64,000 nucleotides of DNA from Pirellulales bacterium (GCA_036272935.1 DATAXP010000009.1:6876-70875), one strand, 5' to 3'. Shown: positions 3 to 26,921, counted from the stretch's first letter. The notes: a model not told the origin generated them from the letters alone. Program-made: numbers and translations.

Positions 3-1532
3 CTCGCGCAGGGCGTCGGCCCCGTCCTCGGCGTCGACGATCGACAGATGATTGAGCGCCAGGTGCGACACCAGCCGCCAGCGCCCTTCCGATAGCGGCA
101 GCCGCGCGGCCGACGTGGGCGGGACGATCGGCACGATGCGCTCGACCGGCGCGTGCCCTTCGAGCTGGAAGCCCCAGCTCTCGCCGCCGCTGGAGCGCAG
201 CTCGCCGGGCAAATCGCGGTTGGTGCAGGTGGTCTGAATCTGGAGCACATCCGCCGGGTCGATCGACGGGTTGAAGTCGAGGTCGACCAGCGAGATGTAC
301 ATCTCGGTGCCGGCATCGCTTTTCTGCACGCTCGGTTGCCGACGCGCATACCAATATGTTTTGGCTCGCTCGGCCGCCACGCCGTGCTTGAACGAATAAA
401 ACGGCTGATATTCCTTCGTTACGTGCGTATCGAGATTGGTCGTCCGCACCGCGTCGATCGAATACACCTCCATCGCCCCCGGTGAGCGGACGTCGGGAAT
501 GACGTGGTAGCGGTGCTTGGTGTGCGCGAGGTGGATCGGATCGGCTTCCTGCGTGAACAGGTTCACGATCGGGGCACAACCCAGGCGGAACGTATCGGCC
601 TTCACGCGCGTCTCGAGCGCCGGCACCGAGCGGTCGAGGAACAGAAAAATCTCCAGCCGATCGCGATATCCCTTGCCTCGCGAACACTCAAGCCCCTCGA
701 TATCGAGGAACATAAACTTGCTGGGGAAGGTGAAATACTCGGTGAGCAGGCGGTACCCGGGAAACGAACGCGGACTGTACGGCAACATTCCCTCGTCGCG
801 CTCGAAACCCACCGGGCGCACCACGGCGGCCGGCAGCACGGTTGAAGGCAGCGCTGTCGAAGGGGCGTTCGGCCCCGGCGCGCGAACCAACACCTGCGTG
901 ACATGGTTGAAGATCAGCTCGTACAGCGTGCGCGTGGTCAGATCGTCACCGCTGAGAAACAGCCGCAGCCGGTCGAGCTGCAATTCCGCCAGCGAAGTTT
1001 CGCCGGTGGTGCGCAGCTCGAGCCGCACCAATGCCGGCGCGCCGCTCGATACTCCCGGCGGCGTCACGTCGGCAAACGGGGCGGTCTGATACCGCGCGGC
1101 GGTGATCTCCAGCGGCCACAGCGTTACCGGGTAGGCGGTGCGGAACCGGCACGACACATCGCGCACGGTGCGCGAGTACAGCTTGCTGTGCCGTGGCAGC
1201 GTGTAGCCGCTGGTGAGCTTTCCCTGGCCGGGATCGACATGGAACTGCACGATCGACATCGACGGAATCGGCGCCAGGTAGTGCGGATACAGGATGTTCA
1301 GCAGGGCGTCGGTCAGCTCGGAGAAATCGTCGTCGAGTTTCAGGCGAACCCGCGCGGTCAGGAAAGCGAACGCCTCGATCAGCCGCTCGACGTGCGGGTC
1401 TTCCGAAACGCCGGTCTCGCGATCGAGCAGCAGCCTGTCGGCAATTTTCGGTCGCTGCCGGGCGAATTCGTTCCCCAGCCGACGGATGAACGTCAGCTCG
1501 TCTTCGTAGCGGCGCTCCAGGGCGTCAGTCAT
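3..1532 (-). CDS. tssF: T6SS baseplate subunit TssF (partial, runs off the left edge)
   Basis: Manual translation from the ATG at 1532 gives MTDALERRYEDELTFIRRLGNEFARQRPKIADRL...EDPHVERLIEAFAFL...YPHYLAPIPSMSIVQF, the classic TssF N-terminus. It directly follows tssE. Absent from the ORF track because it has no stop in the window. Confidence 0.93.
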   Translation of the reverse strand, partial: MTDALERRYEDELTFIRRLGNEFARQRPKIADRLLLDRETGVSEDPHVERLIEAFAFLTARVRLKLDDDFSELTDALLNILYPHYLAPIPSMSIVQFHVDPGQGKLTSGYTLPRHSKLYSRTVRDVSCRFRTAYPVTLWPLEITAARYQTAPFADVTPPGVSSGAPALVRLELRTTGETSLAELQLDRLRLFLSGDDLTTRTLYELIFNHVTQVLVRAPGPNAPSTALPSTVLPAAVVRPVGFERDEGMLPYSPRSFPGYRLLTEYFTFPSKFMFLDIEGLECSRGKGYRDRLEIFLFLDRSVPALETRVKADTFRLGCAPIVNLFTQEADPIHLAHTKHRYHVIPDVRSPGAMEVYSIDAVRTTNLDTHVTKEYQPFYSFKHGVAAERAKTYWYARRQPSVQKSDAGTEMYISLVDLDFNPSIDPADVLQIQTTCTNRDLPGELRSSGGESWGFQLEGHAPVERIVPIVPPTSAARLPLSEGRWRLVSHLALNHLSIVDAEDGADALRE

Positions 1533-1535
1533 GAG

Positions 1536-2024
1536 TTAGCGACTCTTTACCGAGCATTGCCCCGAGGCGGGCTGCACGATCGTGTCGAAGGTGATTGGCA
1601 ACGGGTTCGGCTCGACCCACAACAGGCCGTCGACCGTGAGGCGCAGGACGCGATCGTAATCGTTCCGCGGTTCGTGCAGCGTGGCGCGCACCTGCCGCAG
1701 CCGCGGCTCGAAGCGCGTGATCGCCTCCTCGACCGCCCGGCGGAGCAATTCTCGTTCGGCCTGGCTGCCGACGCCGGTGGCCGTCAGCTCAGGCAGGCCA
1801 TAGGTTAGCACGGAACGGGCAATCTCGCCGTCGCTGCCGACCAGATCCGAACGCACCCGGCGAGTGTTCAACAGATTTTCGAGATCGCGCAACACGCCCA
1901 TCTCGAACTCGCGCAGGCTCTGCGCCTGCCGCCACGCCGGCTCGGTCGAGACGTCGGGCTCGGTGTCGATCAACCGATCAACCAACGATGGCAAGAGCGG
2001 CTGCTGTGATTCGAGTTTGGCCAT
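1536..2024 (-). CDS. tssE: T6SS baseplate subunit TssE (gp25-like)
   Basis: LLPSLVDRL...RDLENLLNTR...YGLP...AITRFEPRL motifs; position in the T6SS operon. Confidence 0.92.
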   Translation of the reverse strand: MAKLESQQPLLPSLVDRLIDTEPDVSTEPAWRQAQSLREFEMGVLRDLENLLNTRRVRSDLVGSDGEIARSVLTYGLPELTATGVGSQAERELLRRAVEEAITRFEPRLRQVRATLHEPRNDYDRVLRLTVDGLLWVEPNPLPITFDTIVQPASGQCSVKSR

Positions 2025-2063
2025 CGGAGCAGGGGTCGGGAGTCGGGATTCAGGAGCCGGGCG

Positions 2064-3638
2064 TCACGCGACGAGCAGAGCTTTGTTGGCCAGGCGCTGC
2101 AGGCTGGGGCCGAGCAGTTCGTCGAGCACCGCCGGCAGCGGCGGTGAGTCGGGCTTGGCTTCGTGCTGCAATTCGCCGCTGGCAACCGCGTGCCCCAGCG
2201 CCTCGACCAGCGCGGCACGATCGCGTGAGCCGTCGAGATTGCGCAGCACGGCAACGTCGAAATCGCTCAGGTCGGTCATGTAGTGCCGCAGGGTCGCCAC
2301 ACGCGACGTGTGGCGCGCCTGGAGCCGCGCGACGGCACTGGCCACCGGCCGCTCGGTCGGCTCGACCACGTACGGAGCGGCGTAGGTGTGCAGCTCAACC
2401 AAGCCGGCAATGTACGAGTTCAGCACCAACTGGGCGAGCGTGCGGCGATCGATCTGAAGGCGCGTGTCGTCCAGCGTCGGCCTCGCGACGAGCTGCCGCT
2501 CGACTTGCTGCCAGAGTTCGTCGAGGCGCACCGGTCGCGGAAACACCTGGGCCAGCGTCACCAGCGCGAGTTTCGCCAACGGGTGATCGCTGGTCACCTC
2601 GATGCCATCGGGCGTGCGGAAGTCCTCGGGGGCGGTCGACCACACGTCGGGCTCGGCACGCGCCGGCTGGCAATGGGCGACGATGTACAGCTCAGCCAGC
2701 GCGTCGACCGATAGATGAGGCGACATGGCGATGTCGCTGTGGCACAGCACGGTGCGGCGGAACGTGCGGTCGCGGATGAAGTCGAGATACTGTTCGATCT
2801 CGATCGGATCGCTGGTCCAGCGGCCAAGCGTTTCCTTCACGTCGTCGGGGCACTTGCCGACCAGGTCGCCGTATTTCGGTTCGCCGATGCACTGCAACCC
2901 CTTGGCCGCGGCGCGCTCGGCAAACTGGTAGAAGTACAGCGGCTCGTTAATGTCTTCGAGATGCTCGTGCAGCAGGTAATAATCGGGCTGGTTGCGCAGC
3001 GCCTCGGCCTCTTCCTTGAGCAGATGGGCGTACAGTCCCTTGGGGAGCCGGACATTGGTGGTGAGGAAATCAAGGAACTCGCGGGCCTCGCGCACGCGCA
3101 CCGCCTTATCCTCGAACCGCTTGACGTGGAAGCACATCATTTCGCGCACCATGCGGCGGACGTGCCAGCCAGGGAACGTGTTGTAGCTGATGTAGGCCAG
3201 GCCGTGCGGGGCAAGGTGCCGGGAGCTGATCGCGAGGATCTTGTCCTGCACCACCGGCGGCACCCATGAGTAGACGCCGTGGCAGAGGATGTAGTCGAAC
3301 GTGCCAACATCGTCGGGCACGTCGAGGATGCTCATCGCCCGCAAATCGAGGTTCTTGATGCCCAGCATATCGACCACGCGCTGCCCCATCGCCACTTGGC
3401 GCGGCGACAGATCGATGCCGACCAACTGGGCCCGCGGCAGCGAGTAGGCCATCGGGATCAGGTTCCCGCCATCGGCGCAACCAAGTTCCAGAACGCGGCA
3501 GGTTTCGACCGGCGGCGGTTTGATGCCGACCAGAGTGCCCAGCGTCGCCAAGGCCGAGGGATGCGTGTAGTGGAACGGATGGCTGTCGTAGGGGACTTCT
3601 TCGTAGGTGCAAGTTTCGACGTCCAGCATTGCCACCAT
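2064..3638 (-). CDS. Class I SAM-dependent methyltransferase with regulatory domain (PKMT-like)
   Basis: YEEVPY..HP, VLELGCADGGN (SAM motif I), FDYILCHGVYSWV, YISYNTFPGW, YLLHEHLE, QYLDF..RTFRRTVL. Confidence 0.85.
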   Translation of the reverse strand: MVAMLDVETCTYEEVPYDSHPFHYTHPSALATLGTLVGIKPPPVETCRVLELGCADGGNLIPMAYSLPRAQLVGIDLSPRQVAMGQRVVDMLGIKNLDLRAMSILDVPDDVGTFDYILCHGVYSWVPPVVQDKILAISSRHLAPHGLAYISYNTFPGWHVRRMVREMMCFHVKRFEDKAVRVREAREFLDFLTTNVRLPKGLYAHLLKEEAEALRNQPDYYLLHEHLEDINEPLYFYQFAERAAAKGLQCIGEPKYGDLVGKCPDDVKETLGRWTSDPIEIEQYLDFIRDRTFRRTVLCHSDIAMSPHLSVDALAELYIVAHCQPARAEPDVWSTAPEDFRTPDGIEVTSDHPLAKLALVTLAQVFPRPVRLDELWQQVERQLVARPTLDDTRLQIDRRTLAQLVLNSYIAGLVELHTYAAPYVVEPTERPVASAVARLQARHTSRVATLRHYMTDLSDFDVAVLRNLDGSRDRAALVEALGHAVASGELQHEAKPDSPPLPAVLDELLGPSLQRLANKALLVA

Positions 3639-3652
3639 TCCTTTGCATTAGT

Positions 3653-3778
3653 TCCCTGTCCCTTCGGGAGAGGGTGGTCGCCGCTGCGGCGACCGGGTGA
3701 GGGCGAAGCGGGCTTGCGCGTCCATGCCGCCTCACCCTCATCTGCCCTTCGGGCACCTTCTCCCAGAGGGAGAAGGCC
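3653..3778. repeat. REP-like composite palindromic repeat (family 1, CCCTCTCCC/GGGAGAGG type)
   Basis: Multiple hairpins; closely similar copy at 22852-22979 and partial copies at 44293-45218. Confidence 0.75.
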
Positions 3779-3787
3779 TGGATTTCG

Positions 3788-4579
3788 TCATTCTTGGACT
3801 ATGCTCACATTCCGCATTTCCAACAATCCCAGCGCTTCGTCGCCGACCAGCAGCGTGCGCATGCCCTGGCCCGTCGTCGGGCCGCCGGGCTCGGCCGACC
3901 AGTCGGTCAGGCGCCCCAGCTTCACCTGGTCGTCGGCGTGCTCGTGCGACCCGTGGTAGCGCACTGGCATGTAGCCCGAGCGCTCGGCGCCGTCAGTGAG
4001 TGTCAGCCGGACTGGGATCCACAGCAGGTCGCGTGGCCGCTCGGGTGCAGTGATCTCCAGCGAGCGCACCTGCTCCAGCGGCAGCCAGAGGTAATCTTGC
4101 AAAACCATTAGCTCGAGCACCGGCGACAGCAGGTCGTCGCAATCGCGCAGGTCGTCGAACGTGCGGCCATCGGCGCTGCCCGTCACGGCGGGATACATAT
4201 CTTCCGCTTCGTCGAGTGCGGCGCGGGCTTCGTCGGGGTGCCCTTCGCGCAGGCGGTTGATCGCTTCGAGGTGCAGCCGCACGTAGGGCGGCCAGTCGAG
4301 GAGCGCCTCGGGCTTGAGTCCTTCGGAAAACAGCCGGCGGCGCTTGCGCTCGGCGGCGATCAGGTTGCGATACACCTGCACGGCCCACTCGCTCTTTTCG
4401 TCGAGCTGGGCGATGGCGTCGAGCTGCTTCTCGGCACGATCTAATTCACCGGCGAAGCACAGCAGCTCGAACAGCAGGGTGCGGGCGCTCAAGTCGGTCG
4501 GGCGCGATTTGACTTGCTGCGTCACGCCGGCGATGGCGGCCGTCAGGTCTCCGTCGGCGAATAGTTGCTTGATATCCAT
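3788..4579 (-). CDS. tagJ: T6SS accessory protein TagJ/ImpE/SciE
   Basis: Start re-assigned to MDIKQLF. Motifs: VKSRPTD...LFELLCFAGELDRAEKQL, DCDD.L.PVLE, RDLLWIP, P.RYHGS, LGRLTDW, GQGMR. Confidence 0.9.
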   Translation of the reverse strand: MDIKQLFADGDLTAAIAGVTQQVKSRPTDLSARTLLFELLCFAGELDRAEKQLDAIAQLDEKSEWAVQVYRNLIAAERKRRRLFSEGLKPEALLDWPPYVRLHLEAINRLREGHPDEARAALDEAEDMYPAVTGSADGRTFDDLRDCDDLLSPVLELMVLQDYLWLPLEQVRSLEITAPERPRDLLWIPVRLTLTDGAERSGYMPVRYHGSHEHADDQVKLGRLTDWSAEPGGPTTGQGMRTLLVGDEALGLLEMRNVSIVQE

Positions 4580-4603
4580 CAGTGCACGAAGCGCGAGCGC
4601 ACG

Positions 4604-4640
4604 AAAAAAGCCGGAGCGCCCGACGAATCGAGCGCTCCGG
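4604..4640 (-). terminator. Intrinsic terminator downstream of hcp
   Basis: CCGGAGCGC-C-CGA-cgaa-TCG-A-GCGCTCCGG hairpin with an A6 tract at 4604-4609 (U-tract on the minus strand). Confidence 0.75.
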
Positions 4641-4661
4641 ACGAGTGCCACGAGGGGTTGA

Positions 4662-5153
4662 TTACATGCTCTTGTTGGCTGTGAGATCCCAGCCGGCCTT
4701 GACCGGGCCGCCGAGGCCACCCTTGGAGTCCTGCGGCTTGTAGTCGAGCTGAAGCTTCGAGAAGTTCAGGCTAACCTGGTCGACCGGAACGATGTCGGAA
4801 TGTCCACTGCCGCCGGTCTGGTAGCTCGACACCAGCAGTCCGCTCATCGTGATCTTGAGGTACTCCTGCTGATCCTTGCCCGCCTTGCGGCAGGTGAGGA
4901 CCGCTTCGTCGATGTGGTCGCCGCCGGCGCAGGCCAGGAACAGCTTTGCCGAAGCCTTGCTGATCTTGGCGGTGAAGTGGAAGTCCTGCATGCTCACCTT
5001 GCCGGCGCCGCCGCCGCTACCTTGAGCATGCGAGCCACTCTGCGTCTCGCCCCAGCTCCAGCTTTCAACGTCGATTTCGTTCTTGTGCTTCGAGTCGTTC
5101 GACTCGCCTTCGATGCCCTTGATCTTCAGAAAAAAGTCCGTGAGCCCAGCCAT
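4662..5153 (-). CDS. hcp: T6SS tube protein Hcp (TssD)
   Basis: FLKIKGIEGES.D.KHKNEIDV.SWSWG, GGGAGKVS.QD, LNFSK; 163 aa. Confidence 0.97.
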   Translation of the reverse strand: MAGLTDFFLKIKGIEGESNDSKHKNEIDVESWSWGETQSGSHAQGSGGGAGKVSMQDFHFTAKISKASAKLFLACAGGDHIDEAVLTCRKAGKDQQEYLKITMSGLLVSSYQTGGSGHSDIVPVDQVSLNFSKLQLDYKPQDSKGGLGGPVKAGWDLTANKSM

Positions 5154-5400: not shown

Positions 5401-6891
5401 TTAGCCCTTGGCCTCCGGCAACTCGGCGACCAGCCGCAGCGACACGCTCAGCTCTTCCAATTGGAAGTGCGGCCGCAGGTGGGCCACCGCCTCGTAGCAG
5501 CCGGGCTTCCCCTTCACTTCGCGGACCACGACGCGCGCCTCGCGCAACGGATTCTTGGCCTTCATCTCCTGGCCGGCGCTTTCGGGATTCGCTAGGCAGT
5601 AGTTCTGAATCCAGCGGTTCAGCCACGCCTCGCATTCGTCGCGCTCCATGAACGCGCCGATCTTGTCGCGGGCCATCGCCTTGAGGTAATGAGCGAAGCG
5701 CGACACGCACAGGATGTACTGCAACATCGTCGACAGCCGAGCGTTGGCGTTGGCGTCGTCGCGATCGTACAGCTTGGGCTTCTGCGCGCTCTGCGTGCCG
5801 AAGAACGCCGCGAAGTCGGTCCCCTTGCAATGGCACAAGGGGATGAAGCCGAGGTCGGCGAATTCCTTCTCGCGGCGGTCGGTGATGGCGATCTCGGTTG
5901 GGCACTTGAGCGCCACCTCGCCTTCGTCGGTTGCGAAGGTGTGGGTCGGCATCCCTTCGACCAGGCCGCCCCCTTCGACGCCACGGATGGCCGCCAGCCA
6001 GCCGTACTTGGCGAACGCATCGGTGATGCGCGTTCCCAGAGCATACGCCGCGTTGGTCCACAGGTACTTGGCGTGGTCCTTGCCGTCGACGTCTTCCTCG
6101 AAGTTGAACGCCTCGACCGGCACCGTCTCCTTGCCGTACGGCAGGCGGCCAAGGGTGTGCGGCAGGGTGAGCCCCACGTAGCGCGAATCTTCCGAGTCGC
6201 GGAAGCTCTTCCACTTCACGTACTCGGTCTGATCCATGATCTTGGCCAGGTCGCGCGGACCCGACAGCTCGGTGAAGCTGTCCCAGCCGAACATCAGCGG
6301 GCTGGCGGCCGACAGGAACGGAGCGTGCGCCGCGGCGGCGACGTTGCTGATCCGCTCCAGCAAGGCCATGTCCTGCGGGTGACGGCCGAACTCATAATCG
6401 CCGATCAGGCAGCCATAGGGCGCACCGCCGAACATGCCGTACTCGTCCTCGTACACCTTCTTGAACAGCGCGCTCTGGTCGAACTCGCTGGCCCGCTCCA
6501 TGTCCTTGAGCAGGTCCTTCTTCGAGGCGTTGAGCACGCGGATTTTCAGACTGGTGCTGGTTTCGGTCTGCATCACCAGGTAGTTCAGCCCACGCCACGA
6601 CGCCTCGAGTTGCTGGAACTCGGCGTTGTGCATGATCTCGTTGAGCTGGGCCGACAGCATCCGGTCGATCTCGGCGATGCGCAGATTGATGGTCTTCTCG
6701 GTATCCTTCGCGACCACCATGCTGGGATCGAGCAGCTGGCCGACGAACTCCTTGAGCAGGTCTTTGCCGCGTTGCAAGGCGTCGTCATCGCGGGCGCGCA
6801 TCCCCTGCTTTAAGATGGTGTCGAGCAGCGACGTGTCGGTCGTGGTGGTGGTCGTGGCGGCTTGGGTTTTGGCTTCTTCTTGGGCACTCAT
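5401..6891 (-). CDS. tssC: T6SS contractile sheath large subunit TssC
   Basis: FQQLEASWRGL, AAAAHAPF, IRGVEGGG.VE.MP, CPTEIAITDRREKE, LRPHFQLE. Confidence 0.97.
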   Translation of the reverse strand: MSAQEEAKTQAATTTTTTDTSLLDTILKQGMRARDDDALQRGKDLLKEFVGQLLDPSMVVAKDTEKTINLRIAEIDRMLSAQLNEIMHNAEFQQLEASWRGLNYLVMQTETSTSLKIRVLNASKKDLLKDMERASEFDQSALFKKVYEDEYGMFGGAPYGCLIGDYEFGRHPQDMALLERISNVAAAAHAPFLSAASPLMFGWDSFTELSGPRDLAKIMDQTEYVKWKSFRDSEDSRYVGLTLPHTLGRLPYGKETVPVEAFNFEEDVDGKDHAKYLWTNAAYALGTRITDAFAKYGWLAAIRGVEGGGLVEGMPTHTFATDEGEVALKCPTEIAITDRREKEFADLGFIPLCHCKGTDFAAFFGTQSAQKPKLYDRDDANANARLSTMLQYILCVSRFAHYLKAMARDKIGAFMERDECEAWLNRWIQNYCLANPESAGQEMKAKNPLREARVVVREVKGKPGCYEAVAHLRPHFQLEELSVSLRLVAELPEAKG

Positions 6892-6900
6892 CGTTTCGTC

Positions 6901-7437
6901 CTATTCTTGGCCAGGTTCTTTGGTTTCGGCGCCTTCCACTCCAAGGGCCTGCGAGAGCTTATCACGCGAGTCGTTGTTCTTGATGATGTCTTCCAACAGG
7001 GCCTCCAGCTTGTCGTTGCCCTCCATCTTGTTGAGCAGATCCTTCAGCTTGTCGCGTGTCTCGAGCAGCTTGCGCATCGGCGCCACTTGCTTGACCACGT
7101 TCTCCGGCTCGAAGTCGTCCATGCTTTTGAAGCGCAGCTCGACGTTCAGGTTCTGCCCTGCCTTGCCCGAGAGCTTGTCGTCGATGCGCAGCGCCAGTCG
7201 CGGGCTCATGCCGGCCAGCACCTTGTCGAAGTTGTCGCGGTCGATCTCGACGAACTTCCGCTCCTTCATCGGCGGCAGGGGCTGGTCGGGCTTGCCCGAA
7301 AAATCGCCCATCACGCCGACGACGAACGGCAGCTCCTTGAGCTGCATCGCGCCGTTGACTTCGACGTCGTAGGTGATCTGCACGCGCGGCTTGCGCACGC
7401 GGTCGAGCTTGTGCTGCGTACTCTCTTTCTTGGCCAT
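6901..7437 (-). CDS. tssB: T6SS contractile sheath small subunit TssB
   Basis: KLDRVRKPRVQITYDVE, ELPFVVGVMGDFSG, RKFVEIDRDNFD; start placed at MAKKES. Confidence 0.97.
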   Translation of the reverse strand: MAKKESTQHKLDRVRKPRVQITYDVEVNGAMQLKELPFVVGVMGDFSGKPDQPLPPMKERKFVEIDRDNFDKVLAGMSPRLALRIDDKLSGKAGQNLNVELRFKSMDDFEPENVVKQVAPMRKLLETRDKLKDLLNKMEGNDKLEALLEDIIKNNDSRDKLSQALGVEGAETKEPGQE

Positions 7438-7505
7438 GAAAGGCTCTCCAGTATGAGAAGCGATAAGCAATTAGCAGTAGCGATTGGCAATCAACAACTC
7501 TCGAT

Positions 7506-8591
7506 TCATCCGGTGCTTTCGGGACGGCGGATGCCCAGCAACTCGCCCACCTGGCCGCGGACGCCTTCGTCGCGGATCAGCTCGTTGAGCAACTGCTCGA
7601 ACGGCATGTGGCCCCAGGCCACGGCCCGTTCGATCAGGTAAGCCACCGGGCTTTGCGGCTCCGTCTGACGCAGGTAATGGGCCACTTCGGCCAGCCGGCG
7701 GAATGCTTCTTGCCGCGAAGCGATCGGTCCCTTCATCGGCGTCATGCCGCCGGCCGCGGCCTCGCCGTTGGTCGCTTCGCCGGCCGGCTGTTCGCTGGCC
7801 TCCTCGGCAAGCCCGCCTTTATCGCGCACGATACGGCGCAGCAGCGCTTCGACTTCCTCAAGCGCCTGGCGCAGGGCGGTAGTTCCCGGCGCGAGCTTAG
7901 CGAAGCGGGCATCGAGCACCTTGTCGAGATTCTTCAGCTCGGCCGCTGCCTCGAGCGCGTCTTGCCGCAACTGCACGACAAAGTCGCGGGGCGTGGCGGT
8001 CACCGCCTCCTCGAACTTCCGCGCCCGTTCTTCCGCTTCGGCCTTGCGGCGATCGTAAGCGTTGTTGTCCTCGTTCTCGCCCTTGGGCGATAGCTTGCGC
8101 GAGTTCCAATAGTTCCACGAATACGCTTCGTCGGAGGCCGCAGCGAGCGGCACGTCGCGCAGTGCATTCGGCAGCCGTGCGCCCCCTTTGGAATCGGTCA
8201 GAAACACCAGCGGCGCGACGCGCGTCTCCAGGTCGCCATCCTCTGGCAACGGATACACGCCGTCCCAGAACGTGTCGAGCAATGTCCCGACCAGCTTGAC
8301 GCCGTCGCGCAGCCCGGCGAAGCCTTGCATACTCACCAGCGCCTCGACCAGCCAACTGGCAATCATCAGGTCTTTCGACTGCTTGGCCAACGCATCGCTG
8401 GTCAGATCGACGACCTTCCGCCACTCGACGGCCGGTGCCTCATCGGTCCCCAGCATATCGCGGTCGCCGCGCTGCCGGGCCGATTTGATCTCCTGATAGA
8501 TCGGCTCCCAGCGCAGATCGACGCCGCACGGATTGCCGCCAGCAATCGGCGCCAAGAGGCGATCGAAATCCACCTGCGGAGCCGAAGCCAT
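7506..8591 (-). CDS. tssA: T6SS TssA (ImpA_N domain, short form)
   Basis: LLAPI...PCGVDLR, SKDL.IA.WL.EAL, FWDGVYP and C-terminal EPQSPV.YL..RA..W. Confidence 0.92.
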   Translation of the reverse strand: MASAPQVDFDRLLAPIAGGNPCGVDLRWEPIYQEIKSARQRGDRDMLGTDEAPAVEWRKVVDLTSDALAKQSKDLMIASWLVEALVSMQGFAGLRDGVKLVGTLLDTFWDGVYPLPEDGDLETRVAPLVFLTDSKGGARLPNALRDVPLAAASDEAYSWNYWNSRKLSPKGENEDNNAYDRRKAEAEERARKFEEAVTATPRDFVVQLRQDALEAAAELKNLDKVLDARFAKLAPGTTALRQALEEVEALLRRIVRDKGGLAEEASEQPAGEATNGEAAAGGMTPMKGPIASRQEAFRRLAEVAHYLRQTEPQSPVAYLIERAVAWGHMPFEQLLNELIRDEGVRGQVGELLGIRRPESTG

Positions 8592-8748
8592 GCGCATTCG
8601 TCCGACAAGAAGAGCGGACGCCCCAGTTGGCATGCAGCCGATCGGTGATGTAAGCGTCGCCCCAGCCTGCGGCTCAGTATAAGTGGGCGCAATCGAAAGT
8701 AAATGACTGGGCGTTAAATTCCGGCCGACCTTCGATCGCTGGTGCCTT

Positions 8749-11694: not shown

Positions 11695-11765
11695 CGTTGG
11701 TGATCCCTACCTTAACGTCGAAAAAGCCGCATGCTGCGGCCGGTGCAGCCCCACAAGGAGTAGCC

Positions 11766-11794
11766 AAGGTAGGCGAGACGGGTGGGTAATGCAA
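11766..11794 (-). promoter_or_regulatory. Putative sigma70-type promoter of paralog 1
   Basis: TTGCAT-N17-TACCTT on the minus strand. Confidence 0.5.
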
Positions 11795-18601: not shown

Positions 18602-18676
18602 CGTGGTAATCCCTACCTTTTGGAAAAACCGCCGCTTGTCTGCGACAGGATGTCGCACCCCCAATAAGAATTGACC

Positions 18677-18787: not shown

Positions 18788-21649
18788 TTACAGCACGTGA
18801 ATCGTCTTGCTGGCCGCGCTCGAGGATACGCCTTTACCGTCAGTTAGTGAGAAACTAACCGTGCGGTCGTACACGCTCATCGACGGATTGGTGTTGTAGT
18901 ACGCCACGTCGTCGACCACCGCTTGCACGGCCGCGGCCGTAGCGGCACTGTTGAACTGCACGACTAAAGGCGACGAGCCGGCGCCGCTTCCGAAGTTGCC
19001 GATCACCGTGCCGTTGTAAAGCACCTGGCTGCCATTGAGCGTGATGCCGCCGCCGGCGACGATCGTGAGCACGTCCGCGCTACCGGCGGAGCCAAGGCCC
19101 ACGGTGAGCTTCGCGGCGGCAAGCCCATTGCTGCCGGCCGTCACTGTGGCGCCACTGGCGACGACCGTGGCGCTACTTCCTGGCGTGTAGTTCACTGTCG
19201 CGCCGAGGTTGCCGATCACCGGCGGCGACGCAACGAAGTGAATCGTTTCGGTCGCCGGCGTCGACGCGGTGCCCTTGCTGTCGGTGAGCGTGAAGCTTGC
19301 CGTGCGATCGTAGATGCTCGGCGTCGAGTTCGTGTTGTAAAACGCCACCTGGTCGACGACCGCCTGCACGGCCGGAGCCGTGGCCGAGGCGAAGAACTGC
19401 ACCAGCAACGGCGACGCACCCGCGCCAGCCGTGAAGTTGGCGACTGCCGTGCCGTTGTAGCTGAGCGTGCTGCCGGAAATCGTGACGCCGCTGCCGGCGA
19501 CGACCGTCACGACGTCGGCGCCGCCGGACGAGCCAACGCTCACCGTCAGCTTTGCGTCGGCCAAGCCGTTGCTACCGGCGGTGACGGTAGCGCCCGAAGC
19601 CAGCAAGGTCGCGCCGCTGCCGGCTGTGTAGGTCACCGTACCGCTGATGTTACCAATCGCCGGCGGCGAGGCGACGAAATGTACCGTCTTGGTTACCGGT
19701 GTCGATGCGACGTTCTTGCTGTCGGTGAGCGTGAAGCCGATCGTGCGATCGTAGACGCTTGCCGAGCCGTTGGTGTTGTAGAACGCCACGTGCTCGATCA
19801 CGGCCTGGACGCTGGTCTGCGTCGCCGCGCCGTTGAATTGGACAAGTAACGGCGACGCGCCGGAGCCCGCCACGAAGTTGCCAATGAGCGTGCCGTTGTA
19901 GAGCACCTGGCTGCCGCTGGTCGTGACACCGCCGCCGGCGGCGATCGTCACCGCATCGGCGCCTCCGGCCGAGCCGACGCTGACCGTGAGCTTTGAGCTG
20001 GCCACGCCGTTGCTGCCGGCCGAGACCGTGGCGCCGCTGGCGACAATCGTCGGCCCGTTGCCGACCGTGTAGGTCACCGTGCCGCCGAAGTTGCCGATCG
20101 CCGGCGGACTGACGGTGTACTCGTAGGCGCCAATGTCGGGAGCACCGACGCGCGCATCGCCGATCTGGTCGAACGGCAGAATCACAGTCGCGCCGGCAGC
20201 GTGCGCCGCCGCGGTGGTGCCGTTGTAGCCGCGCACCACGGTGACGGTGCCGGAGCTGTAGCTCGTGATCTCGATCTCTTCGTTGTCGATCTGAATAACA
20301 TACGTGCCGCTGGTGCTGGCGATCGCGGCGAAGTTCGTGAATGCGCCGCTGGCCAACGAGGTGGCGGTGGCATTGATGCTCGAGGCGAGCGTGGTGATCG
20401 GACCGCCGGCGTTGATCGCGGGGCTGTTGGCCTCGAGGGCCATGGTCTCGGTCGAGCCGCCGTTGTTGGCCAAGGGGCCGAGCAGCGGAATGATCGGGTG
20501 GGCCGAGCTGCCGACCTGATTGCCGGCAACGCCGTTGGCGAGTCCCGATCCCAAGCTGCCCGAGTCGATGCCGATCAGGTTGTTCGTGCTGCCGGCGGCC
20601 AGCGCGGCCCCATAGTAGTCGGAGGCGCTGGGATTGGAATTCACTGGCATGTTGCCCGCGACGATTGTGCTGAGCAACGTGAGCGAGGTTCCGGAGGAAA
20701 AGGCTTCGTCATAGATGCCGTCGCCGTTGTCGAGCGCGGAATTGGCGGCGATCGTCGAGTTGCTGATCACCATGACCCCGCCGTCATTGACCCCGCCGCC
20801 GTTACCGGCCGTGTTTCCGGAAACGGTCGAGTTGCTCAGCGTCATGGTGCCGTGGCTAAAGGCGCTGCCGGAGTTTTCGATTCCGCCGCCGTAGTCGCCG
20901 GTGTTGCTGGTGGAGTTTCCCGAAATGGTGGAATTGACCACCGTCATGGTGGCGCTATTTTCGATTCCCCCGCCATCGTTGCCAGTATTTCCTGAGATCG
21001 TCGAATCACTCACCGTCATCGTGCCCGCGTTGTAAATCCCTCCGCCGGAGTTGGCGGAATAATTTCCGGAGATCGTCGAATTGATGACCGTCATGATGCC
21101 ATAGTTTTCGATGCCGCCACCGTTAACACTTCCGGAGATCGTCGAATTAGTCAGCAATAAGGTGCCGCCATCGCCCGGCTCCTCGTTAAACAGGCCGCCG
21201 CCTTGGCTGGCGTCGATGATCGCGAGGCCGTTGAGGACGGCATTCCCGCCGATCACGCTGAGCACGCCCGTGGTGTTGTTTCCGCTGATCGTGATCTGAT
21301 TGCCGCCGTTGATGGTGACTACACCGACGGACGGGACGACGGTTCCCGCGCCGATTTCGAGTTGACCCTGGCTCAGCGTGATCGTCGAGCCGTTGAGGCT
21401 GGCGTCGAACGTGATCGTGTCGGAGATGGCGTTGGCGGCGTCGGTGTTGGCCGTGATGATCGCATCGCGCAGCGACACGCCGGAGTGCGACGCCGCGTCG
21501 CTGGCGGTCGTCACCACGATTGATGTCAGCAGCCGGCGGCCTTCGAGCGACTCGAATCCCAGGTTGCGGTAATGACGACGAGCCGAGGTGGACACTGCCT
21601 GAAAACGATCACGACGCCGCGAGCCGCGCAGCCAATGGGGCAGTTTCAT
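18788..21649 (-). CDS. Extracellular beta-helix/choice-of-anchor-Q protein with 3 C-terminal repeats (paralog 4)
   Basis: MKLPHWLRG...LGFESLEGRRLL; same architecture. Confidence 0.85.
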   Translation of the reverse strand: MKLPHWLRGSRRRDRFQAVSTSARRHYRNLGFESLEGRRLLTSIVVTTASDAASHSGVSLRDAIITANTDAANAISDTITFDASLNGSTITLSQGQLEIGAGTVVPSVGVVTINGGNQITISGNNTTGVLSVIGGNAVLNGLAIIDASQGGGLFNEEPGDGGTLLLTNSTISGSVNGGGIENYGIMTVINSTISGNYSANSGGGIYNAGTMTVSDSTISGNTGNDGGGIENSATMTVVNSTISGNSTSNTGDYGGGIENSGSAFSHGTMTLSNSTVSGNTAGNGGGVNDGGVMVISNSTIAANSALDNGDGIYDEAFSSGTSLTLLSTIVAGNMPVNSNPSASDYYGAALAAGSTNNLIGIDSGSLGSGLANGVAGNQVGSSAHPIIPLLGPLANNGGSTETMALEANSPAINAGGPITTLASSINATATSLASGAFTNFAAIASTSGTYVIQIDNEEIEITSYSSGTVTVVRGYNGTTAAAHAAGATVILPFDQIGDARVGAPDIGAYEYTVSPPAIGNFGGTVTYTVGNGPTIVASGATVSAGSNGVASSKLTVSVGSAGGADAVTIAAGGGVTTSGSQVLYNGTLIGNFVAGSGASPLLVQFNGAATQTSVQAVIEHVAFYNTNGSASVYDRTIGFTLTDSKNVASTPVTKTVHFVASPPAIGNISGTVTYTAGSGATLLASGATVTAGSNGLADAKLTVSVGSSGGADVVTVVAGSGVTISGSTLSYNGTAVANFTAGAGASPLLVQFFASATAPAVQAVVDQVAFYNTNSTPSIYDRTASFTLTDSKGTASTPATETIHFVASPPVIGNLGATVNYTPGSSATVVASGATVTAGSNGLAAAKLTVGLGSAGSADVLTIVAGGGITLNGSQVLYNGTVIGNFGSGAGSSPLVVQFNSAATAAAVQAVVDDVAYYNTNPSMSVYDRTVSFSLTDGKGVSSSAASKTIHVL

Positions 21650-21697
21650 CGCCTTGGTCCTTCGCGCACGAAAAGCCGGTGGCCCCTACTTTCGCGC

Positions 21698-21726
21698 AGG
21701 CTAGTCGCTGAAATCGCACGATGCAA
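21698..21726 (-). promoter_or_regulatory. Putative sigma70-type promoter of paralog 4
   Basis: TTGCAT-N17-TAGCCT on the minus strand. Confidence 0.5.
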
Positions 21727-21750
21727 GTAAGATTTTGATTGTGCCGCCCC

Positions 21751-22449
21751 TCACTCAGCGATGCCCGTCGCGCGCAGCGCGCGGGCCAGGCGATCGAGTG
21801 TCTTGGCGTGCAGGCGGCTGGCCCAGGCTTTGCCGATGTTCTGTTGTTGGCCGGCGTCGGTGAGTGTGAGGCCTTCGAAGTAGACGGCGCGGATCAAGCT
21901 GCGCGATTCCGCGGGAAGCTGATCGATCAGTTCACGCAGCCGCTGGTGCGATTCGCGCTCGGCGGCGACTTCGGCCGGCGGTGGCTGCGCGTCGTCGGCA
22001 CACTCCCACTCCGATTCTTCATCGCTTCCGGCGCGGCTCGACAGATAGACCACCGACAAGGCGCGGGTCACGTTCTTGAACCAGTTGGCGTCGTCTTCGG
22101 CCGTCGGCGCAGCGGCCTGGGCCGTGTCTTCCTGCGCCAGGCGCAGCACGTCGCCGGCCATTTGTTCGTATTTGATTTTTCGCGCCTGCGAGCGCTTGAG
22201 CCAAGACATCTTCGACAAGCCGTCGTAGATCGCCCCGCGAATGCGATAGAAGGCGAACGTGGTGAACTGCCCGCCGCGATTGGGATCGAAATCGCGTGCC
22301 GCCTCGGCCAGGCCCACCTGGCCGTAGCCGATCAGGTCGTCCAGTTCCACGCTTGCCGGCAGCGTGCGATGGATCTTCAACGCCAGCGACTTCACCAGCC
22401 CCTGGCAATCTTCGATCAGCGATTGCGTGGATTGGTTGACGGCGGTCAT
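21751..22449 (-). CDS. RNA polymerase sigma factor, FliA/WhiG (sigma28) family
   Basis: LVKSLA.KI...LP..VELDDLIGYG.VGL.EAA..FDP.RG..F.TFA..RIRGAI.DGL (region 2) and a region 4 HTH; start MTAVNQ overlaps the upstream stop (ATGA). Confidence 0.9.
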   Translation of the reverse strand: MTAVNQSTQSLIEDCQGLVKSLALKIHRTLPASVELDDLIGYGQVGLAEAARDFDPNRGGQFTTFAFYRIRGAIYDGLSKMSWLKRSQARKIKYEQMAGDVLRLAQEDTAQAAAPTAEDDANWFKNVTRALSVVYLSSRAGSDEESEWECADDAQPPPAEVAAERESHQRLRELIDQLPAESRSLIRAVYFEGLTLTDAGQQQNIGKAWASRLHAKTLDRLARALRATGIAE

Positions 22450-22829
22450 GGTCGCTGCCCGGAGAGACGTGCCCACAAACGCTCGAGACGCTCGCGGGAG
22501 TTGGGATCGTCGCACAAGGTCACGGCAATGCACTGCGAGAGATTGTCGAGCATGGCCGGCGTGAGCCGGCTGCCGACTTGCGATTCGAGCACCGCGCGCA
22601 CCAGCTCGACGACCACCGGGTCGACCTTGAACGCCTTGCCGCGATGAGTGCGGGCGACCTCGGCAAAGTCGCTCAGTGCATCGGCAGCTGAGTCGGGGCG
22701 ATTGGCCGCCGCCTTGAGCGTTTGATCGAGGATTTGTTCCAGCGCGCCGAAGGTCAGCTCGTCGTCATCCTTGGTGCGCTCGGGATGGGCATTCGAGCCG
22801 GTGTCGCCGGGTTGGTAGGGACCTGACAT
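22446..22829 (-). CDS. Hypothetical helical protein translationally coupled to the sigma factor
   Basis: MSGPYQ...IAVTLCDDPNSRERLERLWARL; ATGA overlap with the sigma gene. Confidence 0.7.
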   Translation of the reverse strand: MSGPYQPGDTGSNAHPERTKDDDELTFGALEQILDQTLKAAANRPDSAADALSDFAEVARTHRGKAFKVDPVVVELVRAVLESQVGSRLTPAMLDNLSQCIAVTLCDDPNSRERLERLWARLSGQRP

Positions 22830-22851
22830 GGGGCGGTCTCTGTGCTCCTTG

Positions 22852-22979
22852 TTCCCCCTCTCCCTTTGGAAGAGGGTGCCCGTCGCCGCGGCGGACGGGT
22901 GAGGGTGAACCAAGTCTCGCCGCCGATGCCGCTTCGCCCTCATCCGGCCTTCGGCCACCTTCTCCCAGTGGGAGAAGGA
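22852..22979. repeat. REP-like composite repeat (family 1)
   Basis: Homologous to 3653-3778. Confidence 0.75.
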
Positions 22980-22982
22980 CAT

Positions 22983-24626: not shown

Positions 24627-25271
24627 TCAGATTCCGAAGAAGACAATCCACACACAGATCAACGTGAACGCCGCGACGACGGCTCCCGACAAACTCGACC
24701 ACACGACGAGCGATTGCCCGATGAGCGGCGGCGCACCGGCCCCCGGCGCACCGACATCGCTGATCGTCGGCCGCCCTTGCCCCAGCCGGATCGCCAGCGA
24801 CGTTTGCTTGGTCCAAGTTTCCAAGTCCGGCGGCAGGCCGCGCGGCTCGGCCAGAGCGGCGGCGACGATCGGATTGCGGTACAGGCCGCGGAAGCCGAGC
24901 ACGACGCAGATGTAGAACACCTCAAGCGCGTCGCGCCGCGCCAACGACGACGCTTCCTTAGCGCGCACGTAGAACTGCTCGTTCGCCAAGCGCGTGTTGA
25001 ACAGATCGACTTCCATCACGTTCTCGTTCCACCAATCACGTCCCTGCCACTGGGCATCGATCAGCACTTCGTCGATCCAAGCCACGAGCGCGTACCTGGC
25101 CAACGCCCAATCCTGCCCTTGACCCAGCCGTCCTTCGGCCTGGTCGATCCAGCCGCGCAAGCGAGTGCGCTCTTCGTGCGGATCGGGATTTTGGCCCGCG
25201 GCAATGCGGTCCAGCAGCTCAAGCACGTGCAGGTACACCGGATCGACGGCTTCGGCGAACTTGGGTGTCAT
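24627..25271 (-). CDS. tssL: T6SS TssL/DotU
   Basis: RYALVAWIDE, W....LF....A.EQF, LEVFYICVVLGFRGLY and a C-terminal TM; no OmpA domain. Confidence 0.92.
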   Translation of the reverse strand: MTPKFAEAVDPVYLHVLELLDRIAAGQNPDPHEERTRLRGWIDQAEGRLGQGQDWALARYALVAWIDEVLIDAQWQGRDWWNENVMEVDLFNTRLANEQFYVRAKEASSLARRDALEVFYICVVLGFRGLYRNPIVAAALAEPRGLPPDLETWTKQTSLAIRLGQGRPTISDVGAPGAGAPPLIGQSLVVWSSLSGAVVAAFTLICVWIVFFGI

Positions 25272-26740
25272 GCGTGTGTGGGGACCGCGAACAACGCGAA
25301 TTGAAGCACCACCTGCCGGCCACGCAGCGAGACGATCAGCTTCCGCTCGCCGGAAAGTTTATCGCGATTGACGATCAAGCTGTCTTTGAGCCGCATCGCC
25401 AGCGTGTGTGTCTCGGCTACGTCTTTCCAGGCGGCGTTCTGCCGGCTCACCTGGTAATACAGCCACTCGCGACTCGCCGGCAGCGCCCGCGGCGGACGTT
25501 CCATCGGCACCAAGGCCACGCCTTCCGCACGGTGGGTGAACAATATTTCCACCTGCCGGCTGCTGCCGAGTTTCAAATCGAGCTGCCCCGGCGAGAGCAT
25601 TTCGCGGCACTCGGCCTCGGTCAGTTCGCCGCGCATCACGCCGACGTACCATTGCCAATCGGAGTTGAACCACTTCATCTCCAGGCTGACCTGCATCCCC
25701 AGCCCAACGCCGACGAACGGGCGCATCTCGTACTCATAATCGCGCACCGAGTTGATCGCCTGCTGGATGCGCTCCTTGATCGCACGGAAGATGCGAGCCA
25801 AGTCGTCGTGATCGTAGCGCGGCAGTTCGGGAGTGCGCCGCTGCCAGTCGACGACGAAGATCGCCAATTGTCCCACGATGCGACACAGCTCGGAATACGC
25901 CACCAGTGGATGGATGCCCGCGGCAAACGCGATCACTTCGAGCGTGGCGCTCGCCTCGTTGAGCCGCGAGAGCATAAACAGCCGGTCGAGGTCGCCCGGC
26001 TCCTGGCTTTCGAAGCCGATGCTGCGATTGACCACCTGCTCGCTGAGCACCTCGATCTTCTTGCCGAGGATGTCGTAGATCGCGCGCACCACACCCAAGG
26101 CCAGCGGAGCCCAGGCGTCGGTCGCCAGCATCGGCGGAAAGTAATTCGGATCGATCCGCGGGGTCGCCTCGCGCTCGCCGGCGCGCTGGATCTGCGCGAT
26201 CGGCAACACCTCGTAGCCCGATAAGTCGTCGGTCGACAGCAGCACGCGCACGTTCAGCCGGCGGAACTCAAGCTCCTGGTCGTTCCCACCGCGGCTCTCG
26301 TCCTGCGTCGATTGCCGTAGCGCGTGGTAACGCGGCTTGCCTTGTTCGTCGGTGCGGGCGACGTTCGTGCTGCCGATCTTCAGCTTCGGCACGCCGAGAA
26401 ACACTTGCACGGTGTCGGTCGAGGCGAAGGCATCCTTGAGGCTTGCCGACGGCCCCTTCGCGGCGTTCATGGCCGGCTTCAGATCGACGCGATCCGGCTC
26501 TTCACCAGGATCGAGCGCGATCAGCGTGCCGTCGCGCATCCGGGCGTGGCAATGGTTCACCTGCACCTGGTAGTTGGCGATCGCCTCTTCGCTTAGCTCG
26601 ATCCGCCGCACGCCGTAGTTGAACTGGTGGTCCCACTGTTCGGACCGCTGGCCGGCTTCCGTCCACGAGCGCTCGGCTGCCTGGAAATGATGGGGCCGGA
26701 GGAACAAGCCTTCGGACCAGTGGATCGGCAGATTGCGCAT
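25268..26740 (-). CDS. tssK: T6SS baseplate subunit TssK
   Basis: IHWSEGLFLRPHHFQ, PRYDHDDL; start at MRNLP; ATGA overlap with tssL. Confidence 0.95.
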   Translation of the reverse strand: MRNLPIHWSEGLFLRPHHFQAAERSWTEAGQRSEQWDHQFNYGVRRIELSEEAIANYQVQVNHCHARMRDGTLIALDPGEEPDRVDLKPAMNAAKGPSASLKDAFASTDTVQVFLGVPKLKIGSTNVARTDEQGKPRYHALRQSTQDESRGGNDQELEFRRLNVRVLLSTDDLSGYEVLPIAQIQRAGEREATPRIDPNYFPPMLATDAWAPLALGVVRAIYDILGKKIEVLSEQVVNRSIGFESQEPGDLDRLFMLSRLNEASATLEVIAFAAGIHPLVAYSELCRIVGQLAIFVVDWQRRTPELPRYDHDDLARIFRAIKERIQQAINSVRDYEYEMRPFVGVGLGMQVSLEMKWFNSDWQWYVGVMRGELTEAECREMLSPGQLDLKLGSSRQVEILFTHRAEGVALVPMERPPRALPASREWLYYQVSRQNAAWKDVAETHTLAMRLKDSLIVNRDKLSGERKLIVSLRGRQVVLQFALFAVPTHA

Positions 26741-26894
26741 CGAGGAGCCCACAAACGAAAACGCATCCCCTCGACGTCCGAGGGGACGGTGCCGGCGAGT
26801 GCATATCAAAGAAAATGCATCTAGGCGTATCACTTTACCATCGGCCGTCTATCGACAGCAAGCGTCGCGGCGTCGCGGCGAAACGAGCGATTCC

Positions 26895-26921
26895 GTGTCG
26901 GAACCCCAACGGAAAACTTGA
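26895..26921 (-). promoter_or_regulatory. Putative sigma28-like promoter of the tssK-L-M-hyp-sigma operon
   Basis: Minus strand TCAAGTTT-N11-TCCGACAC; the -35 matches TAAAGTTT at 7/8. Confidence 0.55.

Follow-up and report, generated by a model that had tools for sequence, protein, structure and literature searches.

The locus considered here is a type VI secretion system (T6SS) gene cluster of a Pirellulales bacterium, located between positions 3 and 26833 of a 64,000-nucleotide stretch of DNA (the window; bases 6876-70875 of the 81.9-kb contig C9, G+C content 62-69%). The genome (G000) comprises 5.66 Mb in 169 contigs and has been rated 100% complete. The stretch is represented in sequencing runs labelled soil metagenome, and the closest related loci are titled Planctomycetota, mostly Pirellulales. 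All of the named genes of the locus are co-oriented on the minus strand and separated by short gaps. From high to low coordinates the order is tssK, tssL, a tssM-like gene, a small open reading frame (ORF), a sigma factor gene, three paralogs (A, B and C), a TIGR03032 gene and a fourth paralog (D), followed by tssA, tssB, tssC, hcp, tagJ, a methyltransferase gene, tssE and the start of tssF. An earlier note on this DNA had listed this gene set and described it as an atypical planctomycete T6SS with its own sigma-28-type factor, a minimal membrane complex, an in-operon methyltransferase and an embedded surface-protein array. Profile scans with Pfam and NCBIfam confirm the gene set, while the overall interpretation is partly supported by the results given below. 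The gene matches lie far above the curated cut-offs, so that chance is of no concern.

Of the canonical T6SS-i set (13 core parts, TssA-M, plus PAAR), the genome encodes the TssB/TssC sheath, Hcp, TssE, TssF, TssG, TssK, TssA, ClpV, VgrG, PAAR and TssL. Left of the window, where tssG, clpV, vgrG, PAAR and tssJ genes were looked for, the same contig carries the full tssF (617 aa, 741 bits), tssG (343 bits) and the gene for a ClpV-type double AAA+ ATPase. The three VgrG proteins (Phage_GPD matches, two on C5 and one on C70) and the single PAAR protein (C70), all above cut-offs, are encoded on other contigs, unlinked to the locus, and no TssJ was found in the genome. When all core proteins were used as tblastn queries, one T6SS copy was detected in the genome. 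From this inventory of core parts, only TssJ and the outer half of TssM are missing. The proposed likeness of the tssB-C-hcp-tagJ-tssE-F order to the H1-T6SS of Pseudomonas aeruginosa holds both for the order and for TssC, which matches the solved structures PDB 9n4v (E value 5.6e-202; the closest) and 5n8n (E value 3.2e-166). To judge from the sequence, the T6SS is probably complete and functional.

In the canonical T6SS, the tube is released from the cell via a channel built of TssJ, TssL and TssM. The tssM-like gene of the window encodes a protein of 536 aa with hydrophobic stretches at residues 21-39, 63-81 and 510-528, which stops eight residues past the third helix. A diverged cytoplasmic domain separates the first two of these membrane helices from the third. 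All 17 aligned relatives of this short TssM terminate just past the third helix, and at 78 of 80 related loci the frame stops 0-35 residues beyond the last aligned residue, the contig ending first at the other two. The Walker A motif (GxxxxGK[ST]) is present in both canonical and all four long planctomycete TssMs examined, and in none of the 17 short forms. A profile built from 11 short forms aligns window residues 291-515 to residues 192-442 (IcmF-related_N) of an 1128-aa planctomycete TssM, which continues for about 660 periplasmic residues comprising IcmF-related (490-790), IcmF_helical (900-990) and IcmF_C (1005-1085) regions. No match to the TssM periplasmic domains PF06761, PF06744 and PF21070 was found in the G000 genome, and none to TssJ (PF12790) at an E value of 1 or below. 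The TssL protein has 214 aa and is tail-anchored by a hydrophobic stretch at residues 187-205, with no periplasmic domain.

The short TssM is a conserved, T6SS-linked feature of the lineage. It was found in 19 of the 41 genomes of the same order that serve here as relatives (G000 among them; 22 are TssM-negative), and a full-length TssM or a TssJ elsewhere in these relatives was not detected, PF12790 and PF06761 matching 0 of the 41. In a species-level genome collection, 190 stretches encode a short-TssM relative; the 80 loci referred to throughout are the best 80 of these (L053-L132), all of them from Planctomycetota, and since several are the same contigs as in the 41 relatives, the two sets overlap. 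A HMMER search of the whole protein library returned 1228 TssM relatives at E values of 0.001 or below and 534 clusters at 1e-30 or below, and the best 150 of the 1228 relatives are 331-636 aa long. Many TssM positions are invariant across proteins that are only 40% identical. Cultured carriers include Bremerella cremea (L115) and Aporhodopirellula aestuarii (L123), both with the subtype that has no adjacent sigma factor gene.

In an even sample of 301 Planctomycetota genomes (the phylum sample), TssC was found in 67, PF06761 in 32 (frames of 780-1495 aa) and the short TssM (E value at most 1e-85) in six, all of the window's class. The short TssM is matched weakly in 16 more genomes, in long frames of 1276-1736 aa. 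Three long TssMs subjected to a Pfam scan have a strong IcmF-related_N match and about 1000 residues past the third helix that Pfam does not recognize. Thus, three types of TssM occur in the phylum sample, canonical, short and long. In a TssC tree of 27 rows, midpoint-rooted for drawing only, the seven systems with canonical TssM form their own clade (100/100), while the 12 short and eight long TssM systems are found together in the other (100/100). The short-TssM systems are not monophyletic but intermixed with the long ones, so that five changes are needed. The tree is consistent with one sheath lineage with an unusual TssM, within which the periplasmic part would have been lost and the cytoplasmic domain would have degenerated.

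A candidate for an additional envelope part came from clustering the unassigned ORFs at the 80 loci. A protein of about 1500 aa is encoded divergently from tssK at 24 of them, and the window contains a homologue, here called bigA. Of the 61 loci with at least 1.2 kb of upstream DNA, 25 encode its N-terminal part on the strand opposite to tssK and no more than 1.5 kb away from it, and on a collinear contig of the same genus bigA and tssK are adjacent, with a gap of about 270 nt. The N-terminus of bigA comprises a short basic tail with an invariant Trp10-Arg11, one membrane helix (about residues 26-44) and a caspase-like domain. The remainder, about 1460 residues beyond the helix, includes a linker rich in Pro, Ala, Glu and Lys (about 330-395), a helical region, Ig-like beta-rich repeats and a C-terminal CarboxypepD_reg domain. 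For a model of residues 1-331 (pLDDT 85.1, pTM 0.82), the best Foldseek matches were the MALT1 paracaspase (E value 1.1e-9, TM about 0.5), metacaspases and caspases, although no PF00656 (peptidase C14) match was obtained at an E value of 0.1 or below. The window protein has Thr179 where three of 16 homologues (L065, L130 and L128) have a Cys in an Asp-Cys-Ser/Asn context. On our reading of the alignment, this metacaspase-like column would be the catalytic position, and some members of the family may still be active proteases. Comparison with a protein atlas gave scores of at most 0.85, which serve as leads only and point to caspase and Ig-like domain proteins.

The distribution of bigA follows that of the short TssM. 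At E values of 1e-10 or below it was found in 18 of the 41 relatives, i.e., in 17 of 19 TssM-positive genomes and, as a weak hit, in one of 22 TssM-negative ones. Among the genomes of the phylum sample, the N-terminal profile is matched over nearly its full length in a frame of at least 1474 aa only in G000, G040, G158, G196 and G262, that is, in five of the six genomes with a short TssM; the sixth, G278, has a partial match only (model positions 163-280, E value 7.7e-9) in a 1658-aa frame. In both searches a stricter first look was applied, and the counts are accordingly floors. In G196 and G278, genomes of another order, the bigA-type frame stands right beside tssM. A paralog, bigB, is encoded on contig C73 as a 1776-aa frame that shares the Ser-Trp-Arg tail, the membrane helix and the caspase-like domain with bigA and has a von Willebrand factor type A (VWA) domain in addition. 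It lies in the region C73:50000-69999 (L148; ORF 8436-13766) and is preceded by a gene for a secreted HEAT-like protein of about 500 aa (ORF 6870-8396). In several relatives this HEAT-like/bigB pair follows bigA next to the T6SS. The product of bigA is thus a candidate envelope accessory of the short-TssM T6SS type, and the membrane complex, which had been called minimal, does combine a short TssM with no detectable TssJ but may be incomplete as presently listed, given that bigA tracks these systems. An origin of bigA as a split-off TssM periplasmic domain was considered and rejected: neither bigA (E value at most 0.01) nor bigB (E value at most 0.1) has a BLAST match to four long planctomycete TssMs.

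TssL and the three-helix TssM devoid of a Walker A motif would then act as an inner-membrane stub that docks the baseplate, and the wide planctomycete periplasm would be crossed with the help of lineage-specific proteins, for which bigA, normally divergent beside tssK, is the best candidate. The alternative is a T6SS anchored in the inner membrane that pierces the periplasm and outer membrane of its own cell whenever it fires, with no dedicated envelope-spanning structure, bigA and its paralog being linked to it in some other way, e.g., through sensing, peptidoglycan handling, immunity or regulation. Contractile systems without TssJLM do exist in the Bacteroidota and Amoebophilus types, bigA shows no sequence similarity to TssM periplasmic regions, and it is separated from the locus in the window genome and placed on other contigs in several relatives; the Thr in place of Cys in the caspase-like domain of the window protein would allow a signalling or scaffold role. 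Yet a single-pass protein with so long a region past its helix and a Pro/Ala-rich linker would suit a periplasmic scaffold, its distribution matches that of the short-TssM genomes very closely, and in two genomes of another order it lies directly beside tssM. We therefore regard piercing without a conduit as somewhat unlikely, and retain bigA as the candidate for the crossing.

The sigma factor gene downstream of tssM has a longest ORF at 21751-22533, with matches to sigma-70 regions 2 (PF04542, 44.8 bits) and 4 (PF04545, 29.7 bits). The sigma-28-type assignment is right in so far as FliA/WhiG (TIGR02479) is the best NCBIfam model, but the score of 120.4 bits is below the cut-off of 189.6, and a true FliA (261.4 bits) is encoded elsewhere in the genome, on contig C57. 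This gene and the small gene upstream of it are conserved and T6SS-linked: of the 64 loci whose sequence extends 2 kb or more downstream of tssM, 36 have the sigma gene within 2.5 kb on that side. With a profile built from 12 orthologues, nine of the 41 relatives are matched at E values of 1e-81 or below, with nothing between 1e-81 and 1e-30; these are nine of 19 TssM-positive and none of 22 TssM-negative genomes. Besides G000, the carriers are the eight relatives whose TssM aligns in one piece with that of the window, which suggests a sigma-bearing subtype.

The small gene appears as a 178-aa ORF (22446-22982) without a Pfam family, but its first 51 codons belong to a dispersed repeat, and the conserved protein, of 127 aa, begins at Met52; with the 12 relatives that align, it gives a 13-member alignment. 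The four-nucleotide ATGA overlap of its stop with the sigma start is found in the window and in nine of the 12 relatives. In a predicted complex of the two proteins the median score was 0.80, as compared with 0.00 for the best of three controls, the pLDDT of the partner was at least 66 and the runs shared at least 47% of contacts. Of 80 solved complexes, 58 attained the mark used for this score, as did two of 110 mismatched pairs; this calibration is only rough because our own alignments were used. The predicted contacts on the sigma factor (residues 25, 64, 67, 94-136, 156-170 and 222-226) include regions 2, 3 and 4 together, a pattern that would correspond to an anti-sigma-like grip. No FlgM or other Pfam match to the 127-aa protein was found even at an E value of 10. 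A special sigma-28-like promoter for the locus was also considered and rejected, as only ordinary sigma-70 promoter-like sequences were seen; a promoter consensus scan gave six sites against 3.1 +/- 1.5 expected. At two loci the sigma-tssA intergenic regions (L081:12940-13152 and L063:8205-8424) are filled with short tandem repeats of 7-8 nt and about 24 nt. The FliA-like sigma factor and the 127-aa protein would form a pair dedicated to one T6SS subtype, most likely sigma and anti-sigma factor.

Table 1. Features of the T6SS locus and bigA in the window (positions counted from the first letter of the window).
Feature	Position	Strand	Basis or remark
tssF, cut by window edge	3..1532	-	PF05947, 611 bits
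tssE, gp25-like baseplate protein	1536..2024	-	PF04965, 63.7 bits
PKMT-like methyltransferase between tagJ and tssE	2064..3638	-	Methyltransf_25, MethyTransf_Reg and PKMT_2nd
Dispersed intergenic repeat copy (approximate limits)	3640..3790	.	51 blastn hits in genome
tagJ, ImpE family, TPR	3788..4720	-	PF07024, 133 bits
hcp	4662..5153	-	PF05638, 136 bits
tssC, large sheath subunit	5401..6891	-	PF05943, 473 bits; PF18945, 157 bits
tssB, small sheath subunit	6901..7470	-	PF05591, 204 bits
tssA, short form	7506..8633	-	TIGR03363, 317.5 bits (cut-off 160.85)
Promoter-like element TTTACT-16-TATACT upstream of tssA	8676..8703	-	scan, 9/12 matches
Paralog D	8749..11694	-	54% identical to A; beta-helix, choice-of-anchor Q type; C-terminal repeats of about 110 aa
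TIGR03032/DUF4915 protein	11836..13008	-	Pfam, 442 bits; NCBIfam, 427.2 bits (cut-off 251.5)
Paralog C	13121..15766	-	58% identical to B; N-terminal Planc_extracel motif, 19.4 bits (below cut-off 25.5)
Paralog B; true start probably Met at 18601	15995..18664	-	Beta_helix, 32.5 bits; choice_anch_Q, 48.6 bits
Paralog A	18788..21649	-	choice_anch_Q (NF041518), 57.4 bits (cut-off 25)
Group-3 sigma factor, 232 aa from ATG at 22449	21751..22449	-	Sigma70_r2 and r4; FliA-like, not FliA
Predicted sigma-binding partner, 127 aa, candidate anti-sigma factor	22446..22829	-	stop overlaps sigma start (ATGA)
Dispersed intergenic repeat copy	22830..22982	.	64 blastn hits in genome
Short TssM, 536 aa	22983..24593	-	only Pfam match IcmF-related_N, 46.6 bits, partial, residues 285-402
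tssL (DotU)	24627..25271	-	PF09850, 106.6 bits
tssK	25268..26833	-	PF05936, 232 bits
bigA, 1505 aa, single-pass membrane protein	53398..57915	+	clustering of unassigned ORFs at 80 loci

The products of the four paralog ORFs have 881-981 aa, are mutually 45-58% identical and include a weak planctomycete extracellular motif at the N-terminus, CSLREA and choice-of-anchor Q beta-helix segments and two to three C-terminal repeats of about 110 aa. The NCBIfam choice-of-anchor Q scan covered paralogs A and B, to which C and D are 47-58% identical. All five genes of the proposed surface-protein cassette are present, but the TIGR03032 gene lies between the third and fourth paralogs and not after all four. 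Synteny across the 80 Planctomycetota loci shows the sigma gene and the short TssM to recur, whereas paralogs and DUF4915 were found at none of them, and on the collinear contig of the same genus the sigma gene is followed by tssA after about 100 nt. A near-identical promoter-like element (TTTACT, spacer, CATACT or TATACT) is found directly upstream of tssA at two other loci (L053 and L054); as the element still adjoins tssA in the window, the 13 kb would have entered between the sigma stop and the element. The paralogs are each preceded by a region of their own, and these regions are related to one another. At least five more members of the family (45-58% identical) are encoded away from T6SS genes, at C140:5251-8598, C120:5330-8083, C23:79805-83533, C93:1-3026 and C7:9-2201. 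DUF4915 is single copy in the genome; in three relatives its gene and the T6SS are on different contigs, and there is no paralog in the 1.5 kb around it. It was not found in the two genomes of the same genus. T6SS proteins of the two same-genus genomes are 64-93% identical, as compared with the 45-58% among paralogs, which suggests that the paralog copies diverged before the species split; they probably arrived as a block. Taken together, the four paralogs and the TIGR03032 gene look like a 13-kb lineage-specific insertion that separates the sigma gene from the tssA promoter, and not like part of the T6SS.

Both edges of this block are bridged by metagenome contigs. One from X2, a second soil metagenome that comes from a different study, covers window positions 21433-22806 and crosses the sigma/paralog A junction with one difference, and a contig of X1, which may be the source sample, spans 7400-8806 and thereby the paralog D/tssA junction. 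Other metagenome-contig junctions, with sides of 20-24 letters, were discarded as repeat or other-organism noise.

The methyltransferase aligns end to end with PKMT1 (PDB: 5dnk; E value 1.9e-94, residues 11-523) and PKMT2 (PDB: 5doo; E value 9e-86), and its S-adenosylmethionine (SAM), regulatory and C-terminal winged-helix domains are collinear with the solved PKMT1. It is present at only one of the 80 T6SS loci, that of a relative of the same genus, at the same place and with 80% identity. Full-length homologues (E value at most 1e-76) occur in 12 of the 41 genomes, within the T6SS only in G000 and G002; in the ten other relatives they are located away from the T6SS, and two of these carriers (G034 and G038) have no short TssM. 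At the same threshold, nine TssM-positive genomes gave no homologue. In the window genome it is the only PKMT-like gene. Hence the methyltransferase, which had been counted as part of the T6SS, looks like a separate genus-level insertion, and lysine methylation is an activity that is only predicted for it. A copy of the dispersed repeat (3640-3790) lies directly upstream of the gene. This repeat is about 125 nt long, with a further copy at about 45109-45156; it explains a depth spike of 224 in bin 22442-23095 of the aligned metagenome contigs, and it creates spurious N-terminal ORF extensions, of which the 178-aa ORF is an example.

It could be argued instead that the surface array, the TIGR03032 protein and the methyltransferase cooperate with the T6SS as one integrated variant, e.g., in target recognition or cargo modification, since the genes are co-oriented with short gaps and the sole PKMT-like gene of the genome has kept its place in a relative of the same genus; PKMT relatives of Rickettsia, moreover, methylate a surface protein. 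The absence of the paralogs and DUF4915 from all 80 loci and of the methyltransferase from all but one, the separate upstream regions of the paralogs and the promoter-like element retained by tssA speak against it, as do the additional paralogs on five contigs away from T6SS genes, the DUF4915 genes on non-T6SS contigs and the occurrence of methyltransferase homologues in two T6SS-negative genomes together with none in nine T6SS-positive ones, so that such cooperation is improbable. That the T6SS is decaying and its 536-aa TssM a truncated remnant, as the loss of Walker A and the whole periplasmic region, the two insertions in the locus and the dispersed repeat copies in two intergenic gaps might suggest, is most improbable in view of a short architecture kept in at least 534 clusters (E value at most 1e-30) and 190 loci with many invariant positions, of other core genes that are intact and far above cut-offs, and of the near-identical copy in the second soil sample.

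The gene content, TssM architecture, distribution and synteny observed here are likely to be explained by a T6SS of H1 order with a reduced membrane complex, a sigma/partner pair and bigA as a candidate accessory, into which the paralog cassette and the methyltransferase were inserted. Several points weigh against this explanation. The short and the canonical TssM align only weakly (hhalign probability 49%, E value 1.7e-4), and no solved structure matches the short TssM by sequence at an E value of 1 or below. The absence of TssJ is based on one hidden Markov model (HMM), and as this lipoprotein is small and evolves fast, a very divergent form may have escaped detection. The window bigA is 26.5 kb from tssK, with a whole-protein query bigA was not found in TssM-positive G006 and G040 (the N-terminal profile finds two large frames in G040), and it has no similarity to any TssM periplasmic region, its residues 395-1101 giving no Pfam match at an E value of 10 or below. 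The sigma gene is missing from 10 of 19 TssM-positive relatives and is thus not essential to this T6SS type. The complex prediction was built on shallow alignments of our own (12 and 13 rows), and similarity to solved sigma/anti-sigma complexes could also account for its score. In the regions upstream of tssA (28 loci), of tssK (76 loci) and of the window genes, inspection by eye and a consensus scan revealed sigma-70-like hexamers and no shared GCCGATAA-type element. Finally, related genomes are not independent, and the co-occurrence counts therefore overstate the case.

Going further, one may imagine that Pirellulales and Planctomycetales have replaced the TssJ-TssM channel: a TssM/TssL stub with a dead NTPase would dock the baseplate, bigA and its VWA paralog, recognized through their conserved cytoplasmic Ser-Trp-Arg tail, would span the periplasm, and in one subtype an FlgM-like anti-sigma factor could leave the cell via the Hcp tube when the system fires, coupling secretion to T6SS transcription. 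In this full form the proposal is distinctly unlikely.

Some additional observations concern the neighbourhood of the locus. The block between tssK and bigA (26997-53397) contains PSCyt/PSD1, DUF1501, feoB, a sodium:sulfate-type transporter and two PQQ_2 beta-propeller genes; this 26.5-kb block looks like a second insertion or a rearrangement. The true starts of tssK and tagJ are probably the Met at 26740, whose ATG context is conserved in relatives, and the Met at about 4579, respectively, as the longest tagJ ORF overlaps hcp. Among 25 related loci showing both tssC and tagJ, 16 carry a tandem pair of tssC-like genes and lack an hcp between tssC and tagJ (they include L056, L057, L058, L063, L068, L070, L074 and L075), and only three (L053, L090 and L092) share the tssC-hcp-tagJ order of the window. 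The two vgrG genes on C5 are in tandem (G000:C5:13083-17830), and the third is found with the PAAR gene at C70:4521-7597; their neighbours may be effector and immunity genes. For the six ORFs (about 2.6 kb) between clpV and the contig end, no counterpart was found near the T6SS of relatives, except for one L123 match. A search for terminators in the locus was uninformative (15 found, 13.4 expected).

As far as our searches show, this conserved planctomycete T6SS variant is undescribed. The literature searched concerned TssM and T6SS in planctomycetes and their genera, truncated or TssJ-independent TssM, and T6SS with FliA or anti-sigma factors, subscription journals and supplements being outside the search. 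A 2026 preprint places Planctomycetota among the T6SS-rich phyla; the passage in question does not describe the machinery. The organisms in question have been described with an enlarged periplasmic space (PMC7716846). A large lineage keeps an H1-like sheath, baseplate and TssL but not the TssM periplasmic conduit, the NTPase motif or TssJ. This makes testable both a minimal membrane anchor for a T6SS and the way in which a wide periplasm is crossed, with bigA, its paralog and the sigma/partner pair as concrete candidates. The locus also illustrates that eye-catching extras of an operon can be plain insertions.

Among known systems, the H1-T6SS of P. aeruginosa, the type labelled T6SS-i3, is similar in its tssA-B-C-hcp-tagJ-tssE-F-G-clpV order, its TagJ (ImpE) and its short TIGR03363-type TssA, and its sheath chain (5n8n_B; E value 3.2e-166) is the second-best solved relative of TssC. 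In the system described here, by contrast, TssM lacks the periplasmic part and Walker A, TssJ was not found, the vgrG and PAAR genes are not linked to the locus, and the locus has its own sigma factor and partner. The long planctomycete TssMs (L180-L183, from other classes) belong to systems of the same TssC clade (100/100), apart from planctomycete systems with canonical TssM, and their periplasmic part is likewise unrecognized by PF06761; they differ in their length (1489-1596 aa), in an IcmF-related_N match of 195-230 bits as opposed to 46.6 bits here, in having Walker A and in the approximately 1000 residues past the third helix.

FlgM binds sigma-28 across regions 2, 3 and 4 together. The FliA/FlgM pair is resembled by a group-3 sigma factor closest to FliA/WhiG and a small adjacent protein predicted to contact the same three regions. 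However, the sigma factor is below the FliA cut-off and a true FliA is encoded elsewhere, the partner has no FlgM match, the pair is encoded at a T6SS locus instead of among flagellar genes, and the regions upstream of tssA and tssK revealed no sigma-28-type promoter. The Rickettsia enzymes PKMT1 and PKMT2 (PDB: 5dnk and 5doo) share full-length similarity and the same three Pfam domains with the methyltransferase, which differs from them in its planctomycete host and in lying within a T6SS operon, an arrangement limited to two genomes of a single genus.

The T6SS of Acinetobacter is TssJ-less and working, and relies on the genus-specific envelope proteins TslA, TsmK and TagX (PMC12949010). As described there, it keeps a full TssM whose periplasmic domain oligomerizes into a channel (PMC12949010), the very domain that is missing in the short TssM, and in place of these accessories the present system has an unrelated candidate of about 1500 aa with a caspase fold. 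The Acinetobacter T6SS nonetheless provides a precedent for bigA-like accessories in a system without TssJ.

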